A stretch of 64,000 nt of DNA from a virus (lineage: Duplodnaviria; Caudoviricetes): positions 2,665 to 66,664 of the IMG/VR virus record IMGVR_UViG_3300031112_000372. One strand, given 5' to 3'. Positions 4,201 through 53,249 of the stretch are shown one piece after another; the first letter of the stretch is position 1, and each line of letters starts with the position of its first letter. Both the position numbers and the translations under genes were made by a program. The notes beneath the pieces are model-generated. The model was not told the origin of the DNA, did not search any database, and saw only the letters and a list, made by a program, of their open reading frames with translations.

Positions 4201-4259
4201 TTCACTTTCCTTTTGACGTAAAAAAGCCACCCGTAGGTGGCGCAGTTTTTTAAGTTGGT

Positions 4260-4409
4260 TCATGCTTTTATAGAAGCAATTATTACATCCAACTTCCACA
4301 TTAAGATTGGGATGGAAAACAAAAGAATAAATGCAATTATTGTTTGCCATAAGCCGTACTTTTCAATAGACACTTTTATAAGCTCCACTATTGGTTTAAA
4401 ATGCTCCAT
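4260..4409 (-). CDS. Unannotated 49-aa hydrophobic peptide (type I toxin-like)
   Basis: MEHFKPIVELIKVSIEKYGLWQTIIAFILLFSIPILMWKLDVIIASIKA*. AAGGAG RBS about 12 nt upstream. Below the ORF-track size cut-off. Confidence 0.75.
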   Translation of the reverse strand: MEHFKPIVELIKVSIEKYGLWQTIIAFILLFSIPILMWKLDVIIASIKA

Positions 4410-4485
4410 ATAGATATATCTTCTCCTTAATCTAGCTCTGGTTAAGTTGATAAAAAACCTCAGTGCTCCAACACTGGGGTTTTTG
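4409..4485 (+). ncRNA. Putative antisense sRNA across the RBS/leader of the 49-aa peptide
   Basis: Plus-strand -10 TAAAAT at 4397-4402; hairpin plus U-tract at about 4454-4485. Inferred, not demonstrated. Confidence 0.45.
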
Positions 4486-4596
4486 CTTTTTGATCATAGA
4501 AAACCTAGCTATGAGTATCCTCCGGCCCGATTTCCATGTAATAAAAAACCGCCCGAAGGCGGCTCTTGAGAAAAATCAGTTAATTCAATTTGTTTT

Positions 4597-5370
4597 TTAC
4601 AAAGCTGCTCCGCAAATATCCTTAGTACCTGATGGATAAGTTTGTGTAATTTTTGATTGATCCAGCAAGAACTCGATTGAGACATCTTTGTTCGCATCAG
4701 TTGCTGCTAAATCATAATAATTTGAAGTTAATGAAAAATATAGGTTATCTAGTTTAGAAGGGAAAGTTGCAAAATAGCCTTTGTTAACCCCATTAAAAAC
4801 TAAACCAACTTGATTAGAGTTCTGATTAATATAGATACCAATCTTTTGATAGCCATCAGAAGTAACTTCTGGAGCTAACTTAAATCCATTAGAAACCAAT
4901 GCATCATCATTTGATGTGGTTTGAAAATAGAAATGATTAGCTGTGGGTCCATGTTGGTAAGCAACTATGATATTCATAGCCTTACCGTTCTGCATAATTC
5001 CTGCTGCTAAAGCTGGAAAAATATTTACATATCCGGTATTACCTAATGTAGGAATTTTAATTTTATATTCAAAAGCTATAATTCCAGTGGTGGGTATTAT
5101 TTTGTCACCACGCGTATAAAGTGAAGCTTGATTATCATTTGCTGCTAATGCCCTTGTCAGATAATCCTGACTATAAGCCATATAAATCGGGCTTTGCTGA
5201 GACGTCTTATAGGAAAACTTATTTCCTGTAATAGTTGGGAACTTCTGAACAGAAGTATTACCTAAAGATTGTAACTGAGTTAATGTTGCATCAAAGCTAT
5301 AAGTACATTCTGCAAAAGCACTACTTATTCCACTGAAGCCCATTATTGTTGCTAAAATTATCTTTTTCAC
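4597..5370 (-). CDS. Secreted DUF4882-like protein (paralogue 1)
   Basis: Signal peptide, CTYSFDAT N-terminal motif and YPSGTKDICG C-terminus, both shared with 26313..27188. Confidence 0.7.
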   Translation of the reverse strand: MKKIILATIMGFSGISSAFAECTYSFDATLTQLQSLGNTSVQKFPTITGNKFSYKTSQQSPIYMAYSQDYLTRALAANDNQASLYTRGDKIIPTTGIIAFEYKIKIPTLGNTGYVNIFPALAAGIMQNGKAMNIIVAYQHGPTANHFYFQTTSNDDALVSNGFKLAPEVTSDGYQKIGIYINQNSNQVGLVFNGVNKGYFATFPSKLDNLYFSLTSNYYDLAATDANKDVSIEFLLDQSKITQTYPSGTKDICGAAL

Positions 5371-5488
5371 GGCTTTATCCTATTTTTATTTTGAACATTT
5401 AGTATAAACAAGTCTCTAAATATTTTAATTAAATCCGATAAATGATAGAAAAATAAGTGAACTATTTAATAATACCGCCCGAAGGCGG

Positions 5489-5878
5489 TTAACTATTTTG
5501 AATATCATCTTTGGCTTTTTTAACTTCTTTGATTACTTCAACAATTGTTTTACCTTCCTGTTTATCAATAAAGTTAAAGATCCAGCGGACTAAAGCCCAA
5601 CCTGGGATACCACAAATAAAGAAGAAGCCACCAAGTGCTATCATCCCCCATACATCAGTAACCCATTCATGAAGCCCCCACTTCACAATAATGAATGATC
5701 CACCTGCTAAACTTGATACGACTGTACAAATGAGCCCAACGGCCCATTCTTGAGGTGAGCGCGGCATACGTGTCATCAATACAACTGCTGCAACTAATGC
5801 GACCGCTAAAGTCACCATGATTGCCGCACCATAAAATTTTAAAATTGCTGTTAAACCACTAGTGGAAACTGGTTCCAT
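5489..5878 (-). CDS. Putative holin
   Basis: 129 aa, three hydrophobic helices, charged C-terminal tail, upstream of the endolysin in the late operon. Confidence 0.75.
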   Translation of the reverse strand: MEPVSTSGLTAILKFYGAAIMVTLAVALVAAVVLMTRMPRSPQEWAVGLICTVVSSLAGGSFIIVKWGLHEWVTDVWGMIALGGFFFICGIPGWALVRWIFNFIDKQEGKTIVEVIKEVKKAKDDIQNS

Positions 5879-12266: not shown

Positions 12267-12769
12267 ACAGCCCCCTTCAGACCACTAAAGCGATCCAGTG
12301 CAAAAATATCTCCCGTCTTCGCGGTATTTAATCGTGGTGATTCAGCCTTGAATGTCACAGCTTTATGGTTCATTGATATGCCTGAAAGTTTCAGTCCTAA
12401 CAAATAATGGATTGGTGTATTCACGTTGTCCGAACTATAGAGTCGATAATTTACGGTAGGCTTAACGTCTGAATATTGCCCTTCAATTACCCTTTCAAAC
12501 TCATCCGGCAAGACATCCCCAAGTCCTGAAATTGAAACAGTTAAGGTCTGGTCCAGATCCCCTAGCATTCCAGATCTTTGGATAGACATAGGTAGGTATT
12601 CATAAAAGACCTGTCCTGATCCTTCTTTATGCTGGACATAGACACCCTGATCATTGTTGCGAACAACCCGATATATATTTAGAAAAGATGGATGTGATAA
12701 CTCAATACACTCCAGTTGGTAGATATCGACTTTGCGATTGAGAAAGAACTTGGCATATTCGTTATCCAT
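12263..12769 (-). CDS. Minor tail protein (DUF1833-like, lambda L position)
   Basis: Synteny; likely start MDNEY at 12769, overlapping the upstream stop. Confidence 0.7.
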   Translation of the reverse strand: MDNEYAKFFLNRKVDIYQLECIELSHPSFLNIYRVVRNNDQGVYVQHKEGSGQVFYEYLPMSIQRSGMLGDLDQTLTVSISGLGDVLPDEFERVIEGQYSDVKPTVNYRLYSSDNVNTPIHYLLGLKLSGISMNHKAVTFKAESPRLNTAKTGDIFALDRFSGLKGAV

Positions 12770-13167
12770 TAGACCTCCCAATCTTTAATCAATACTGCAT
12801 CAGCTGTAAGGTTTGGCTGATTCTGAATAACTTCTAGCTGGGCAGTTACCCGGTAAAGATTGCCATTCACTTCGTTGGTCTTAAACGAGTTCGGAATAAA
12901 ATTGCATTGGTATTGCTGGCGTGCTCCTTGGTCAATGACTAAATCCGCATAAAACGAGGCTGGCTTGTTCTGATAGACACGCCAGAAAGCCATCATTTTG
13001 TTGAAATCAGTTTTACTTAAATTCCAGTTCACATCGACAATATGGCTATTACGCTTCACATCAATGTAATAGCGTCCACGTCCTCCATCCATCTGCTGAC
13101 GCTTTACATCATCACCTGGTGTTACGCTATAGCCATTTGTTTGAGGATTTAGCTTCAACTTGTACAT
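12769..13167 (-). CDS. Minor tail / distal tail protein (lambda M position)
   Basis: 132 aa immediately after the tape measure gene in the tail order. Confidence 0.7.
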   Translation of the reverse strand: MYKLKLNPQTNGYSVTPGDDVKRQQMDGGRGRYYIDVKRNSHIVDVNWNLSKTDFNKMMAFWRVYQNKPASFYADLVIDQGARQQYQCNFIPNSFKTNEVNGNLYRVTAQLEVIQNQPNLTADAVLIKDWEV

Positions 13168-13228
13168 AACTTTCCTTCAGGCAATAAAAAACCGCCCGAG
13201 GGCGGTACCAAAAGATAAGAACTATTTA

Positions 13229-13390
13229 TCAATCATCATCGTTATCTTTCCTAATAGCTTTAATTATTTCAGGTGATTTCCAAGCAAAAATGCATAGAAG
13301 CACTGAGATAAGTATAAATATTAACGTTCCAATAGGTAAACTTGATGCCATATTGATCAATCCTGTAATTGCTATGATATAATCTGTCAT
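13229..13390 (-). CDS. Unannotated 53-aa hydrophobic peptide (type I toxin-like)
   Basis: MTDYIIAITGLINMASSLPIGTLIFILISVLLCIFAWKSPEIIKAIRKDNDDD*. AAGGAG RBS. Same leader as 4260..4409. Confidence 0.75.
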   Translation of the reverse strand: MTDYIIAITGLINMASSLPIGTLIFILISVLLCIFAWKSPEIIKAIRKDNDDD

Positions 13391-13465
13391 AAGTAGTTTC
13401 TCCTTAACTTTCGCTGGTTGAGTTGAATTGAAAACCTCAGTGCGCCAACACTGGGGTTTTTGCTT
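13390..13465 (+). ncRNA. Putative antisense sRNA across the RBS/leader of the 53-aa peptide
   Basis: Extended -10 TGaTATAAT at 13375-13383 on the plus strand; hairpin plus U-tract at 13431-13468. Inferred. Confidence 0.5.
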
Positions 13466-13707
13466 TTTAAGTGCCCTTATTATTTCATTTCAAAAAAGTG
13501 TCATTTATTCATTTTTCCTACTTTGGAAAACATAGGTATAAAAAAACCACCCGAAGGTGGTCCTTTCATAATATTGACTGTCAATATGTTTTAGAAGAGA
13601 CTAGACGATTACACTGTCAATAGCTCTTCTTTCCTCATACCTGTATCTTTAAAAGGTTTTAGTTACACATCGCTAACATTATCCTCTCTTATACGTGTGC
13701 TCCTAAA

Positions 13708-16700
13708 TTAACGGTTCCGTCTTGCGGTCGTATTCTCAGTCAAAGAGCGGCTAATAGTTGAGTTCGGATTTTTAATATCCTCACTTACCAGTTTCGGTAC
13801 CGCTCTTGGAAGCTGCTTATCCAGTTCATCTTTAACAATGATCCGAACTGTTTTCTCATCCAATTGTTCAGCCTCAACTGTTGCCCCTTTTACCTGATTA
13901 ACTACTTCAATCTTGAAATTGATAGTCGGTGAAGCAGGTTCGATTGAAGGCATAATCTCAGCTTGAGGACGTAAAGATTGTCCTAAAGTGAAATCTTGTA
14001 CATCATTGAGATTTGATCGATCCTGAACTAAACCATTTGAAGAAAAGTAAACCTTTCCGTCATGGAATAAATCTGAATTAGGAGATTTACCAGCATTTGT
14101 ATTGCCTTTATAAATAATCTGGCCATCCTGAACCGGTTGATTAAAGATGTCAGATTGCTTTTGACTTTCCATAAAGGCATTAGAGCTCATCAATGCACGG
14201 CGCATGACACTATCAGTTGAGACATTGTTATTGAGGAAAACTTCAGGGTTTGAACTCTTACGCATTTTCTCAACTAAGCCAACTCCACCCCAACGGCGAA
14301 TATCCTCTTGGGACCAAACAACCTCTCCCTTATGAACAATGCCGGCAGGTTCGTATTTGCCACCTCGCCCAGTAAAACCACCATCAGCAAACCCTTGATC
14401 CTTAATTGCGCGGATATTTGCAATAATGCTGGCACCTTGTGCAACGGCCCCAGCAATCAAAGGCAAGTTGTAAGGAAAACCAACTTTTGAAGCTGCTGCG
14501 ATATTCTGCTGAATCGCAATACCGGCAGCTGCAATTGCATAAGCTTTATCTGCAGCGAACATGAGCTTGTAAGCTTTAGATTGTTCACCAAACATTGAGC
14601 CAAACATCGAGGTAACTGAACCCATCATTTGCCCACCAAGAGCAATCTGAGCGTTTAATCTATCTTGTTGATACTTTTCTTCAACATCCTTAACGTTCTG
14701 AGCATAATCACTGTAAATTTGACTTCGTTGCTCTTGAGCAGCTTGAATGATCGCGGTTTTCTGGTTCTCGAAGTCCTGTTGCTGAATTAATCCAGCTTCC
14801 ATTTGTGCATTCAGATTGTCTAAACCATTTTGTTCGTCTAAATCAGCTGCTGCATATTGGCTATCAGCTAAGTCATTGGCAGCGCCCAAGCGGCTAAACC
14901 GTTCCTGATCCTGTCTATAGAACTCACTGGTACCATTCATATCAGCCTGAATACCACCCCAGTTTTGAACAGCGTTATTCACCTTATCGCGTGTCTCTTT
15001 GTCCTGAGTAGCTTTAGATAATGCGATTAGTTTTTGACGCTCTTCAATAGAAAGCTTTGTATTCTTAAGAATCTCCTCTCGTTCGAGTCTATATCGCTCC
15101 TGCATGGCTTGAGTTTCGGAAAGTAGAGATAAGCGAGCTTGAAATAAGCGTTGTTCTTGGGCCAACTTCATAAGCGCGTTTTCTTGCTGATATTGCTGTT
15201 CCAGCAATTCCACTGCCTGTTTCCGTTCAGACTTAGTTAATTCAATATCATGAGCCGCATTAAACTTTTTACGGTTAAAACTCTCTTCAAGTAATGCAGC
15301 TTCGGTTTTCTGGAACTCCTTATAGTCCTCTAGCTTGCTTCGAATCGCTTGTTTGGCGATCGCAATATCATTGTCTGCACGACGATTTAATTCCGCCTTA
15401 ATTTCAGCAGTACGTTCAGGACTGAAATTAGCTTTGTCCACCTCCCCTAATCTTGTCTTTCTATTATTGTCAATACGCTCAACTTCAGTGGCTACTTCAT
15501 TTTCAAGTGATCGTTGTAAGTCTTGCTGACGATCAAGTTGCGACTGAATATCACCAGAAGCTTTATCACTTCCCTTACTAGCCCCACCTTTAACCTTGCT
15601 TTGCATACTTGGTGACTGGTGAAGAAGTTTTAGTGATACACCATCCTCAAATATCACCTCACTAACATAACCACCACCTTTACTATCGTAGTGGGTCTTA
15701 ATGTCTTTCACAGCAACATTAGTCGTGATCGGCGTACCTTCAGGCATTGAAAAATCAATACCCTTATGAAATGAAGAAGCCCCTTTGGTAGGGGCTTTTC
15801 GTGGACCGTAATTTGAACTGATCTTGTAGGATGACAATGGTTTGCCGCCTGCTTGTAATCGGGCTAGATGTTCATTCGATACTTTCTGGCCAGACATTGA
15901 ACCACCATATCGAACGTCGAGATGAGGACCTGTGCCAATTCCTGACTGGCCTGAAACACCGACTAATCGTTTCGAAAGTTTTTGCTGTTTTGATAACTCA
16001 TTAGTTGTTTCCTTTAATGCTTTATTCTTCGCATCAATCACATTCTTGTTTTGTTCCTCTATCGAAAGAGTCTGCAAACCAATCTGATATAATTCATTAG
16101 AAACTTCAACTCCGCTTTTCCGCGCCCAGCTTGCAGTTTCAACCATTTGCTTCACTTGCTCAGGTGAGTAACCTTTGGCAAGTAAACCTTTGGTAACTAA
16201 TGCTTCAAATTTACGATCTGCCAATGAATCGGCATATTGCTTTTGTGCATTTTTAGCAGCTAATGCAGCCCTTTCATTCTCATTCAAGGACTTGGTGTTT
16301 TTATCCACTCCTACGATAGCATTTTCAGCTTTATTTCCTGCAAGTGTTACCTCAAAACCAAATAAGCTATACGTTTGCTTGGTCTTGGCAGCAGTTTCAG
16401 CTGCCTCATCATAGGCATTCACTTGTTTAAGCAATGCATCCATTAAATCAGCAGGAATTTTTTGACTCTTTAATTGCTCTATCGCTTCAGTATATGAAAT
16501 GGTGCCAAGTCTGGCCTTATTCGAAATTTCAGCAACTTTGGCATTGCCCACCGCATAGTTCTGGATATTGATCAATGCTGAACCGACCGCTAATTCTTGC
16601 CGTTCTAATGCCTTGTTTTGATCTTCAATTGTCGCAGCTAAATCACCTAATTTTTCTTTACGCTGTTCATCATTAAGGGCTTTAATTTCTTCCTTAGTCA

Positions 16701-18186
16701 ACTTTGCAGCTTCAGCTTGCTCTTTTAGCTTTGCAGTGGCTTCAGCAGATTTACTAGAGAAATACATGTAAGTCGCAGCCAAAGCAGTCACGCCTAATGT
16801 GATTGCCCCAATTGGACCACCAATCAATCCCCATGCACCGCTCACTAATCCTGCCATTGAAGCACTTTTGCCTTGCGCTAACGTAACGGCCTTCGTTGCA
16901 TTCTCAACATTATTAGCTGCAAGTACATATCTGGCACTCGCTGCACTTGCTCCAAATCTGGCTTGGGTTTCAGCATTTGTTGCTCGCACATTCACCAAAT
17001 GTGCCTCAGCTTCTGCAAGCGCAGCTTTTGCGCTTTCTATCGCCTTTTGCTTTTGCAATTGTGATGCAGCATTGTCAGCAACTAAAGCCCCTAATTTGGT
17101 ATTTAAAGCTGATACTTGAGTTGCGATTGCTTTGGTAAGTAATGCTGTACCACCGAGAATAGCTACATAAGAGATTGATTCTAAGTTTTCAGCTAAAACC
17201 TTAATTGAACCAGATAAAACGTTAGCTGCACCACTTCCTTGACTAGCCTCGCCGACAAATTTAGTAATCTCATTATTAAGAAGAGTTAATGACTGGCTGA
17301 TCGTAATATCAGTTTTGCCAAATAATGCATCTACATCAGACTCTACATTTCTTAAGGCTTTCACAATTTCTTGCGATGTGATTTTTCCTTCAGCAGCAAC
17401 CGTACGCAACTCTCCTACGGTAATACCCATACCCTGAGCAATAGCTTTTGCTAAAGCAGGTGTTTGTTCCATGACAGAGTTCAGTTCCTCACCACGTAAG
17501 GTACCACTCGCTAAGGCTTGTCCGAACTGAACTAAAGCAGCATCTGCCGCAGAAGCACTCGCGCCACTAATCGCCACAGCTTTTGAAACAGTTTCAGTTA
17601 AACGCGCTGTATCATCCATTGTTAGATTTAAAGATTTAGCATTATCACTAAATCTTTGATAAACCTGTAAAACAGAATCCCAGGCTGAATAGGTATTTTG
17701 AGCAATCCTGAATGTATCTTCAGTCGCCTTATTTAACTCCGTCTGGTCTTTTGTAACTAGCTTTAAACGGTTTTGTAGTCCTGTATAAGCATCTATTTGA
17801 CCAATTGCAGCATTGACCGTAGCCAAGCCTGCCATATATCCAGCCAAAGCTTTAATTGACGTACCGAATAAGTTAGCCGCTTTATCCTGTTTATCCAGCT
17901 CATTGGTTGTAGCTTTAATTTCTTGAGCAAATTTATGATTTTGTTGAGTTGCTTGTTTAGTCACTTCAACCGATTTTTGAACAGACGTATTGGAATTATT
18001 AACTGTGGTATTAAAGTTTTGAACAATGTTATTAGTAACAGAAAGCTGTTTCCCCATATCTTTCGATGAGTTAGATGCGGAATCACCTCGATCAGTAAAT
18101 TTTGACAATTCTTCTGCTAAGGCTTTGACATTACGTTCAGCATTCTGTGAATCAATAACAATGACCAGACGGGATTCTTGTGCCAT
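13708..18186 (-). CDS. Tail tape measure protein with an embedded M23-type peptidase domain
   Basis: 1492 aa, Ala/Gln-rich helical; tape-measure N-domain (QFGQALASGTLRGEELNSVMEQ); HKGID and GTGPHLD motifs. Confidence 0.93.
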   Translation of the reverse strand: MAQESRLVIVIDSQNAERNVKALAEELSKFTDRGDSASNSSKDMGKQLSVTNNIVQNFNTTVNNSNTSVQKSVEVTKQATQQNHKFAQEIKATTNELDKQDKAANLFGTSIKALAGYMAGLATVNAAIGQIDAYTGLQNRLKLVTKDQTELNKATEDTFRIAQNTYSAWDSVLQVYQRFSDNAKSLNLTMDDTARLTETVSKAVAISGASASAADAALVQFGQALASGTLRGEELNSVMEQTPALAKAIAQGMGITVGELRTVAAEGKITSQEIVKALRNVESDVDALFGKTDITISQSLTLLNNEITKFVGEASQGSGAANVLSGSIKVLAENLESISYVAILGGTALLTKAIATQVSALNTKLGALVADNAASQLQKQKAIESAKAALAEAEAHLVNVRATNAETQARFGASAASARYVLAANNVENATKAVTLAQGKSASMAGLVSGAWGLIGGPIGAITLGVTALAATYMYFSSKSAEATAKLKEQAEAAKLTKEEIKALNDEQRKEKLGDLAATIEDQNKALERQELAVGSALINIQNYAVGNAKVAEISNKARLGTISYTEAIEQLKSQKIPADLMDALLKQVNAYDEAAETAAKTKQTYSLFGFEVTLAGNKAENAIVGVDKNTKSLNENERAALAAKNAQKQYADSLADRKFEALVTKGLLAKGYSPEQVKQMVETASWARKSGVEVSNELYQIGLQTLSIEEQNKNVIDAKNKALKETTNELSKQQKLSKRLVGVSGQSGIGTGPHLDVRYGGSMSGQKVSNEHLARLQAGGKPLSSYKISSNYGPRKAPTKGASSFHKGIDFSMPEGTPITTNVAVKDIKTHYDSKGGGYVSEVIFEDGVSLKLLHQSPSMQSKVKGGASKGSDKASGDIQSQLDRQQDLQRSLENEVATEVERIDNNRKTRLGEVDKANFSPERTAEIKAELNRRADNDIAIAKQAIRSKLEDYKEFQKTEAALLEESFNRKKFNAAHDIELTKSERKQAVELLEQQYQQENALMKLAQEQRLFQARLSLLSETQAMQERYRLEREEILKNTKLSIEERQKLIALSKATQDKETRDKVNNAVQNWGGIQADMNGTSEFYRQDQERFSRLGAANDLADSQYAAADLDEQNGLDNLNAQMEAGLIQQQDFENQKTAIIQAAQEQRSQIYSDYAQNVKDVEEKYQQDRLNAQIALGGQMMGSVTSMFGSMFGEQSKAYKLMFAADKAYAIAAAGIAIQQNIAAASKVGFPYNLPLIAGAVAQGASIIANIRAIKDQGFADGGFTGRGGKYEPAGIVHKGEVVWSQEDIRRWGGVGLVEKMRKSSNPEVFLNNNVSTDSVMRRALMSSNAFMESQKQSDIFNQPVQDGQIIYKGNTNAGKSPNSDLFHDGKVYFSSNGLVQDRSNLNDVQDFTLGQSLRPQAEIMPSIEPASPTINFKIEVVNQVKGATVEAEQLDEKTVRIIVKDELDKQLPRAVPKLVSEDIKNPNSTISRSLTENTTARRNR

Positions 18187-18321
18187 TTTACTTTTCTCCA
18201 GGCAATAAAAAACCCACTCATTGAGTGGGTCTATTTAAGTTAAATATATTTACTAAGCTGGACAGTTAAACAAATTTAGTCTTGCTGCAAATCGTTGCCC
18301 AAGTGCTTTTAAATCCATTCA

Positions 18322-20002: not shown

Positions 20003-20093
20003 TTGTTATAAAATATACTAACTTTAACAAAGTGGTTACTAATTGTCACATAAAGAAAAACCACCCAAAGGTGGTTTTTAAATTAATGATAGT

Positions 20094-27188: not shown

Positions 27189-27457
27189 GCATATAAAAAG
27201 ATTGATTAAAAACTGACAAGCGGTAATTTTTATTTCTTTAAAAAATTTTTCTTATTTAACTTCTAACCAGCGTGTACTGTGGATGCTGAAACGGTGAGTT
27301 GTGCCATAAGAGAATGTAATTTGTACTTATCATCTAAACCCCTAACTTGCACCCATTAAAAAACCCACCGAAGTGGGTTTAAGCTTATATCCATAAATTA
27401 ATACTACAATTTAGTTTCCTAATACATTTTGGTTCCGTATCCGCCTTGCTCGAAACT

Positions 27458-31467: not shown

Positions 31468-31572
31468 TTAAAATCTCCTAGAGATACCGCCTTGCGGATT
31501 TAATTGTTTAGCCCTCTGCCTTGCTTCAGGCATTAAAAAACCGCCCGAAGGCGGTACGTTGTAAGAGAGCGA

Positions 31573-52311: not shown

Positions 52312-53249
52312 GCTGCCCCCTGCAATATGCCTTTGAACCCGACTTGCTTGAGATACGGTTCCCATTGTTTGGCCTGAGCTGGATCGCTAAGTTTTACAGC
52401 GATCCGTGCTGCGAGCTGATCGTAGCTTTCCCCTGCAGCTGCAAACTGGCTTGCGAACTCAGCATGTTGTGAGAGTTTTTGAGCAAAGGTGTGAACCTGT
52501 TTGTCACTGAGTTGATTTGACTCCCCCTGCGGGACTCGAACCTGCGTCCCTGAATTCCGAAAAAATGCCTGTTCACGTGCTTGGTATTTGCCACATGCGT
52601 TGATTAACCAATCTGCAAAGTGGTAATGCATGAGTTCATCACAAAGATTCTTATCGGCATTGTAGAGTTCAAATGCTCGAAGCTCCCGATCGAACCATGT
52701 CGCGTTTTTGATCTGCTCGTAAGTTTCCTGATCAGTTGCCAAACGAATTTCTTCACCAAGTTTTTTCAAACTCAACCATGTTTTTTTATTTTTAGATTCT
52801 TCTGATAGATTCCCTGATAGGTTCTGTGTCCCAATATTGGGACTGGTCTCGGTACCGTTTTTGGGACTGGTTGCGGTCCCATTATTGGTACTAGTACCGT
52901 TTTTGGAACCAGTACCGAAATTGGAACTAGTTCCGTTATTGGTACTAGTCCCCTTTTTGGGACTGGTTAAATCATTTTCTTCACGGCCCATCACGCCAAT
53001 TAACTGGTAAACCTTGACACCATTGCCGGTTATCTCACCTGTAAATCTAATTAATGAAATAGCCTCAAGCTCATCTAAAACCTTGATCACTGTTTTACGG
53101 TTAAGGACAGTATCTTTAACCATACGTTTAATGCTTGGGTAGCACTTGTGAGACTCACCCGCTCTATCAGCCAAGGCCAATAAAACGAGTCTTTGACTTG
53201 AGGTTTTAACCTCTGCTTTAAAAGCCCAAATGGTTGCGTCCAGACTCAT
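52308..53249 (-). CDS. Replication initiator (HTH, lambda O-like)
   Basis: N-terminal LVLLALADRA...CYPSI winged HTH; internal iteron-like repeats. Confidence 0.85.
   Translation of the reverse strand: MSLDATIWAFKAEVKTSSQRLVLLALADRAGESHKCYPSIKRMVKDTVLNRKTVIKVLDELEAISLIRFTGEITGNGVKVYQLIGVMGREENDLTSPKKGTSTNNGTSSNFGTGSKNGTSTNNGTATSPKNGTETSPNIGTQNLSGNLSEESKNKKTWLSLKKLGEEIRLATDQETYEQIKNATWFDRELRAFELYNADKNLCDELMHYHFADWLINACGKYQAREQAFFRNSGTQVRVPQGESNQLSDKQVHTFAQKLSQHAEFASQFAAAGESYDQLAARIAVKLSDPAQAKQWEPYLKQVGFKGILQGAA
52828..52968. repeat. Seven imperfect ~18-bp direct repeats, probable replication-origin iterons
   Basis: Minus-strand units such as ACCAGTCCCAAAAAGGGG / ACTAGTACCAATAACGGA / ACCAGTCCCAAAAACGGT inside the initiator gene. 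Confidence 0.75.

Follow-up and report, generated by a model that had tools for sequence, protein, structure and literature searches.

Why would a gene for a small hydrophobic peptide, lying between two tail genes of a phage, carry a promoter-like sequence on the opposite strand and inside its own first codons? The question is raised by module 2, a 53-aa peptide gene with its leader, which is located in a 64-kb piece of a 66.7-kb provirus record (this 64-kb stretch as a whole is referred to as the window). By BLAST the window belongs with temperate siphoviruses of Acinetobacter baumannii. A sister copy, module 1, is present in the same window, and the original prediction read the two as type I toxin-antitoxin (TA)-like units with one leader and unrelated peptides. 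As judged from the sequence, the ribosome-binding site of this small membrane-peptide gene is very probably covered by an antisense RNA of about 80 bases, and the locus would represent a cis-antisense-gated cassette of Acinetobacter temperate phages.

Two modules with a common leader in the late operon

The late genes of the window are encoded on the minus strand. Module 2 is situated among them, flanked by the tape measure gene on one side and by a minor tail gene on the other (Table 1). It is bracketed, and presumably insulated, by predicted minus-strand intrinsic terminators on both sides. The Shine-Dalgarno (SD) context TTAAGGAGAA has just two occurrences in the window, one in each module (13398-13407 and 4421-4430) and both on the minus strand. 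The leaders of the two modules (4409-4491 in module 1) show 88% identity over 71 nt, and the 38-nt hairpin region (13431-13468 and 4454-4491, repeat family D7) shows 97% identity. The two modules do share leader, ribosome-binding-site context and hairpin, as had been claimed for them.

Near-identical minus-strand intrinsic terminators of the AAAAAACCGCCCGAAGGCGGT type, with 7-9 similar copies, flank accessory genes along the late operon. Some of them directly precede essential genes, for example those for the endolysin and the minor tail protein, which implies antitermination of late transcription, with the accessory genes in between forming insulated units. Upstream of module 1 and the GH108 endolysin gene we also noted two further minus-strand genes. 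One encodes a secreted DUF4882 protein of 257 aa (4597-5370) and is moron-like in being bracketed by terminators, the other a phrog_1024 protein of 129 aa with multiple transmembrane (TM) segments (5489-5878) that is holin-like by position.

Table 1. Positions of the two modules, their predicted RNA elements and the surrounding terminators in the window
Feature	Position	Strand	Basis or remark
Peptide gene, module 2	13229..13390	-	53 aa + stop; ORF list, hydropathy, dN/dS
Shine-Dalgarno context TTAAGGAGAA	13398..13407	-	AAGGAG at 13400-13405, 9 nt before ATG
Predicted antisense promoter, extended -10 (TGaTATAAT) TGATATAAT	13375..13383	+	within codons 3-6 of the peptide gene
Predicted antisense sRNA, ~79 nt	13390..13468	+	ends predicted; fold, terminator call, covariance model match
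Predicted sRNA 5' tail, single-stranded		+	over start codon and spacer
Predicted sRNA stem-loop 1	13398-13427	+	
Predicted sRNA terminator hairpin	13430-13461	+	
Predicted sRNA U-tract		+	
Candidate extended -10 (TGaAATAAT) for the peptide mRNA	13479..13487	-	weak candidate, from sequence
Upstream intrinsic terminator, after the tape measure gene	13537..13570	-	terminator scan; families D1/D2
Downstream intrinsic terminator + T-run	13184..13206	-	before minor tail gene start at 13167; terminator scan (13206-13191), repeat family
Tape measure gene	13708-18186		
Minor tail gene	12769-13167		phrog_384
Peptide gene, sister module 1	4260..4409	-	49 aa; phrog_35629 'membrane protein'; directly upstream of GH108 endolysin
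Predicted antisense -10 TAAAAT, module 1	4397-4402	+	promoter-region sequence
Predicted antisense sRNA, module 1	~4409-4491	+	fold, covariance model match
AAAAAACCGCCCGAAGGCGGT-type terminators	4207-4243, 4529-4565, 5465-5489, 13172-13208, 13527-13563	-	further copies at 18193-18229, 20051-20075, 27344-27380, 31521-31557

A conserved antisense -10 within the first codons

In module 2 the offset is 7, from the last base of the TGATATAAT hexamer (13383) to the A of the start codon (13390). The hexamer of module 1 ends at 4402 with the A at 4409, so that the identical placement in both modules is confirmed by the sequence. For a wider comparison 41 non-redundant modules were taken from other contigs and genomes, and a -10 was scored as TAnnnT with at least 4/6 matches to TATAAT on the antisense strand. 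Such a hexamer ends 3-10 nt before the complement of the start codon in 37 of the 41 modules (about 4-5 expected), and in 22 of the 41 it has the TGn extension (about 0.1 expected). At other places on this strand of the same ORFs, the background rate per position was 1.4% for TAnnnT and 0.02% for the TGn-extended form, which corresponds to an enrichment of about 8-fold and more than 100-fold, respectively. This bears out the suggestion that the placement goes beyond chance, and the homologous leaders, on whose keeping the antisense -10 at this offset the original prediction had staked itself, largely do keep it. Most often (24 modules) the gap between hexamer and start-codon complement is 6 nt; gaps of 8 and 9 nt occur in 7 and 4 modules, respectively. 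The four modules with no -10 in the 3-10 nt range belong mostly to peptide family G.

The hexamer is conserved across three peptide superfamilies with coding sequences as varied as TDYII, PEIIA, EDFIK, EHFKP, TNHTS and SEKNT, and is spelled by equally varied codons (GAT TAT ATC, GAA ATT ATA GCA, GAT TTT ATC, CAT TTT AAA, AAT CAT ACA, AAG AAT ACC). The TA...T frame is also kept despite residue changes within a family, as in the exchange of EIIA for KSIA, where TATAAT becomes TATACT. A -35 hexamer with 4-5/6 matches at a spacing of 17-18 nt was found in several families. In module 2 itself a two-hexamer promoter scan found no antisense (plus-strand) and no sense promoter, and the predicted antisense promoter appears to be of the extended -10 type.

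The hairpin and the fold of the predicted antisense RNA

In the terminator scan the module 2 hairpin is called as a plus-strand terminator of 14 pairs and a subsequent CTTTTT. Read on this strand, the hairpin has 13 uninterrupted pairs including G.U, followed by UUUUUGCUUUUU, with the tail TTTTTGCTTTTT. Read on the minus strand, it has a C.A mismatch at the same position and four U only. The module 2 hairpin is predicted to work mainly as a plus-strand terminator. The plus-strand U-tract TTTTTGCTTTT is the most conserved part of the whole element, in contrast to the minus-strand run, which varies from 3 to 8 T.

The 79-nt plus-strand RNA of module 2 folds with -26 kcal/mol (z -3.7), compared to -16.4 kcal/mol (z -1.6) for its complement, where z-scores refer to dinucleotide shuffles and are thus controlled for composition. 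The corresponding z-scores in module 1 are -4.6 for the antisense RNA and -2.1 for the complement. Of 55 leaders, 48 have an antisense fold more stable than the sense fold, with a mean difference of 6.7 kcal/mol, and over the 55 leaders G.U pairs number 3.3 in the antisense versus 1.5 in the sense RNA. The recurrent antisense fold consists of a stem-loop 1, with the anti-SD CUCCUU in its 5' arm, and the terminator. No pair of stem-loop 1 shows a fully compensatory double change. Five of its pairs vary by U-A, U-G and C-G exchange, and pairing is preserved in the antisense RNA only, as the sense RNA has C.A at these places. In divergent genomes free covariation is seen in the terminator stem (CCUCAG/CUGGGG, GCUCAU/AUGGGC, CCCAAG/CUUGGG and GCCCAGC/GCUGGGC), and the invariance of its 3' arm in the first survey set reflects the exact 19-mer that was used to pick those loci. 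With the covariance model R1, built for the antisense RNA, the sRNAs of modules 2 and 1 score 94 and 98 bits.

Duplexes between the sRNA of one module and the leader of the other have calculated energies of -98 to -102 kcal/mol with the SD included, compared to -146 to -147 kcal/mol for the cognate duplexes. Cross-neutralisation between the two modules, which had been proposed from the similarity of the leaders, is thermodynamically plausible according to these calculations.

Peptide families behind the common leader

The module 2 peptide is a small (<60 aa) hydrophobic protein of the generic type I kind with predicted membrane activity (GRAVY 0.84, 15-aa hydropathy maximum from residue 22, charged C-terminus). 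It is laid out as an amphipathic N-terminal part, one TM segment (approximately residues 17-37) and a charged tail WKSPEIIKAIRKDNDDD. Its dN/dS is 0.25-0.32 (against the relatives at survey loci L022 and L108), and across seven peptide families dN/dS ranges from 0.04 to 0.32, which indicates purifying selection. Each family has a strong SD, and the peptide ORFs appear to be real coding sequences. Relatives of the module 2 peptide in A. pittii and A. baumannii share 70-74% identity with it and are named 'hypothetical protein', and the peptides in general carry either this name or no annotation in the databases. Ten peptides spanning all families gave no match in Pfam, NCBIfam and PADLOC, only families of unknown function or 'membrane protein' families match in PHROG, and an ESM Atlas look-alike search returned only unnamed clusters below 0.9.

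At least three peptide superfamilies were found downstream of the common leader in the surveyed viral contigs and Acinetobacter genomes. Superfamily I has an amphipathic N-terminus, a TM segment and the motif W-K/Q-x-P/D-x-II-x-A-x-K; it comprises families A, C, D and E, with module 2 in family D and module 1 in family E. Superfamily II (families B, F and G) combines a hydrophilic N-terminus (HTSKSxLKVDGKMSExGAD) with a C-terminal TM segment. Superfamily III begins with MSEKNTKFLVKFLGATMEA..., followed by a TM segment and then HY.

Regarding the two peptides of the window, the original statement that they have no obvious similarity stands at the level of BLASTP (E 0.25). It does not stand at the level of profiles, as the D-group and the E/A-group align over the C-terminal 20 columns, i.e. 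the end of the TM segment and the tail, with a probability of 81% and an E-value of 1.3e-5. The aligned motif is W-K/Q-x-P/D-x-I-I-x-A-I-K, and the sequences from L049, L086 and L103 are intermediates that link the two peptides. The description of the two copies as unrelated was therefore dropped, and the peptides are probably distant, divergent relatives. A side observation concerns Acinetobacter phage Abau_Attikon1 (L001:1987-2094), in which a second ORF of 35 aa overlaps the end of the family A gene by an ATGA overlap. This ORF resembles the C-terminal half of the module 1 peptide, pointing to mosaic recombination between peptide genes.

A probable cis-antisense RNA over the ribosome-binding site

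Since both the antisense -10 and the terminator on the plus strand are conserved, these modules are best explained by a cis-antisense RNA that covers SD and start codon. Transcription of the plus-strand sRNA would start at about 13390 from the extended -10 within codons 3-6. The 5' tail of 8-15 unpaired nt would be complementary to the start codon and the spacer, pairing would run on through the SD to the 5' end of the mRNA, and the sRNA would end at the conserved hairpin and U-tract. Pairing with the leader is expected to occlude the ribosome-binding site and thereby to repress translation, would probably trigger cleavage of the duplex, and would keep the peptide off in the lysogen. On this reading the peptide may be toxic, and its mRNA may have a promoter of its own rather than arising from late read-through.

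Taken together, we favour a new antisense-gated, type I TA-like family of peptide cassettes in Acinetobacter temperate siphophages, which inserts at two hot spots of the late operon. The module would act like a type I TA system, not filed under any known family. Its two copies in this prophage and tandem copies elsewhere are typical of type I TA loci and were counted for the type I reading. On balance it is probable that the layout is type I TA-like, with an sRNA that pairs with the leader and keeps the peptide off in the lysogen, and with a portable leader/sRNA unit and an exchangeable coding part. A more far-reaching version is put forward only tentatively, as we are inclined to doubt it. 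It holds that one leader/antisense unit serves as a universal, recombination-portable lock for at least three unrelated cargoes within an unrecognised family, that codons 3-6 of each cargo are forced to encode the -10 of the sRNA, and that a resident sRNA silences the cassettes of incoming relatives. The last point would follow from the near-identity of the leaders between phages, and would give prophages an RNA-based form of cross-talk or immunity.

Insertion sites and the comparison with morons

The modules were found at two insertion hot spots, one between the tape measure and minor tail genes and one between the holin-like phrog_1024 or DUF4882 gene and the endolysin gene. Peptide families are not specific for one site, since A, B and E occur at both. 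The idea of a portable cassette with exchangeable cargo gains support from superfamilies II and III standing behind the same leader, and families that occur at either site agree with it. The two peptides of the window do not provide an example of such an exchange, because they are probably divergent relatives. Most related phages match the flanking tail gene alone, without the module. Like a moron, the module is an insertion of the non-essential type between conserved genes, present or absent in relatives, with its own terminators and at two recurrent sites.

These features also suit an explanation in which the sRNA is real and the peptide is no toxin, only a benign moron product for superinfection exclusion or modification of the envelope, similar to HK97 gp15, with the sRNA limiting its level. 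Terminators flank the module at what are classical moron sites, PHROG lists the module 1 peptide under 'moron, auxiliary metabolic gene and host takeover: membrane protein', and no known toxin resembles the peptides. Insertion beside the tape measure gene is also reminiscent of HK97 gp15; this lambdoid moron is a gene for a small inner-membrane protein among the tail genes, which forms a transcription unit of its own with a terminator. The module is similar in being a small inner-membrane protein gene inserted among tail genes with a terminator, but shows no homology to gp15 and has a conserved predicted antisense RNA lock of a kind not known from morons. A tight antisense lock over the SD together with a bidirectional terminator in the leader would be unusual for a harmless product and is typical for toxic peptides, and this lock is common to at least three unrelated families of hydrophobic peptides. 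We consider a benign product unlikely, albeit worth keeping in mind.

Sense promoter and late transcription

A promoter of its own is expected for the stable toxin mRNA of a type I system, in which the antitoxin RNA is labile, and likewise for a moron, where a sigma-70 promoter would be active in the lysogen. Evidence for a dedicated promoter of the module 2 peptide mRNA is weak. The sole candidate is TGaAATAAT at 13487-13479, which would start the mRNA near 13472-13468, just 5' of the hairpin, and it is not conserved in relatives where the upstream terminator directly adjoins the leader. This arrangement, which leaves no room for a sense promoter, is found in about 11 of 30 genomic relatives, and sense transcripts would have to come from read-through or antiterminated late transcription there. 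The absence of promoter room appears atypical for type I TA systems and fits a gate on late transcripts. Late-operon read-through may thus supply the message for the peptide, a situation equally compatible with a 'sar-like' phage gate on translation and with a classical type I TA system. CI-operator-like palindromes (TTAGG-N4-CCTAA) were found only at 54.6-54.7 kb and 58.3 kb, with a 1-mismatch site at 26.7 kb, and none is near the modules; control by the repressor is hence not indicated. An iteron-like array (52876-52963, family D3) was noticed some 2 kb away from the 54.6-54.7 kb operator palindromes; it consists of four head-to-tail copies of a repeat with an 18-nt period (GTNCC..TTGG.AC) and could be a replication origin or another binding array.

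The missing promoter room raises the possibility that the module has no promoter of its own and works as a late-gene gate of the P22 sar/ant type, with the peptide, e.g. a lysis or assembly accessory, translated from antiterminated late transcripts only. The resident sRNA may then silence leaky late transcripts and perhaps also the conserved leaders of superinfecting relatives. P22 sar is a phage antisense RNA of 68-69 nt with its promoter at the start of the target gene; it covers the ribosome-binding site of ant and ends at an intercistronic terminator. The sRNA predicted here has the same antisense layout, but the target of sar is an antirepressor in the immunity region, compared to a membrane peptide in the late region, and there is no sequence relation. 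Such a gate would agree with the position of one hot spot inside the lysis cassette, with strong terminators ahead of essential late genes, which require an antiterminated late operon, and with leaders so nearly identical across phages that cross duplexes reach about -100 kcal/mol. However, the same peptide families are found as well at the site between tape measure and minor tail genes, from which the lysis genes are distant, most A. baumannii copies do have a spacer of 50-100 nt with a -10-like box about 7 nt before the leader, and the module is dispensable, with most related phages lacking it at a given site. A pure late-transcript gate thus appears to us quite improbable.

The antisense-gated, type I TA-like cassette has finally to be set against the view that there is no functional antisense RNA at all, with the hairpin as a bidirectional late-operon terminator and the -10-like hexamers as a by-product of AT-rich N-terminal codons. 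This is very improbable: although the hairpin scores as a minus-strand terminator as well in module 1 and in C/E-type leaders (6-8 U), the two-hexamer scan reports no plus-strand promoter at module 2 and no Rfam family matches, the enriched -10 keeps a fixed offset across unrelated codons, the fold is strand-asymmetric and includes stem-loop 1, which is part of no terminator, the minus-strand hairpin of module 2 is the mismatched one with the short U-run, and a strong terminator is already present 70 nt upstream.

Comparison with type I systems and known Acinetobacter sRNAs

An Rfam search of the window at the gathering score gave no match to the element, including the type I antitoxin RNAs and C4, the model relevant for the C4-like Group 1 sRNAs of A. 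baumannii. At E≤10 there was no C4 match in the region 13100-13750 either, where the best hits were unrelated sRNAs far below threshold. Accordingly, none of the known type I families (Hok/Sok, Ldr/Rdl, Ibs/Sib, TisB/IstR, ShoB/OhsC, Zor/Orz, SymE/SymR and others) matches the element by Rfam, Pfam or NCBIfam. In Hok/Sok and Ldr/Rdl the antisense RNA is located 5' of the ORF (T1TAdb, PMC8594479). The module resembles these two systems in its hydrophobic peptide of ~50 aa, its location on a mobile element, its several copies per element and its short cis antisense RNA (predicted in our case), which the mRNA leader overlaps over its whole length. The module is related to neither system by sequence or Rfam family, and in contrast to both the predicted sRNA of the module directly covers the SD and the start codon, without coupling to a leader peptide of the mok type, its promoter is located within the first codons of the peptide gene, and one leader is common to at least three unrelated peptide families.

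The literature searched contained no description of a type I toxin-antitoxin system or of this sRNA in Acinetobacter, and the sRNA papers on strains ATCC 17978 and AB5075 make no mention of toxins. A possible counterpart was nevertheless noted among the sRNAs of AB5075. ABUWs015 is an experimentally detected sRNA of 82 nt (777,765-777,846), located in antisense orientation between ABUW_0801 and ABUW_0802, two co-directional genes (Weiss et al. 2016, PMC5320573). Since these genes fall within ABUW_0733-0815, which is a prophage of AB5075 (PMC6834608), ABUWs015 lies inside this prophage. By its description it fits the predicted sRNA in size, orientation and place, and is a candidate for it. The Group 4 sRNAs ABUWs013 and ABUWs021 (62 nt) of the same strain were rejected as a match, as ABUW_0747/ABUW_0748 by ABUWs013 are the Cro/CI genes; next to such genes, both sRNAs are probably something else than the module sRNA.

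Distribution and significance

The IMG/VR survey used an exact 19-mer from the hairpin as query and yielded 68 contigs; the 19-mer was also found in four genomes of the A. calcoaceticus-baumannii complex. With the covariance model, matches were obtained in 80 of 151 Acinetobacter species genomes at E≤0.01, and in about 30 at E<1e-5. Among sequenced GenBank phages only Abau_Attikon1 and vB_AbaS_qsb1 carry the leader, which is also present in a few ~50-kb GenBank 'plasmid' records that resemble phage genomes. The cassette is common: for the family A peptide alone, the index lists 894 blocks of assemblies.

Acinetobacter is a priority hospital pathogen. If the proposed mechanism holds true, the cassette would represent a new antisense RNA family with a clear target and a natural case of a regulatory RNA unit that is shuffled between unrelated coding cargoes, in which the promoter of one gene constrains the N-terminal codons of another. 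Its candidate membrane-active peptides and RNA locks would also be of interest for prophage stability, exclusion between phages and the design of phage therapy.

Regarding copy number, this prophage carries two modules, and tandem copies are present in some genomes. A second sRNA/leader copy is located ~400 nt from the first at L096:1880-1964 and L111:1904-1988, and eight covariance model matches were found in a single genome (G123). At six survey loci (L079, L087, L089, L091, L092 and L105) a small conserved hairpin motif, CGGAAGTCTTTCCGCCTGAT with variants, is located ~70-120 nt upstream of the leader and could be a regulator binding site or a promoter element.
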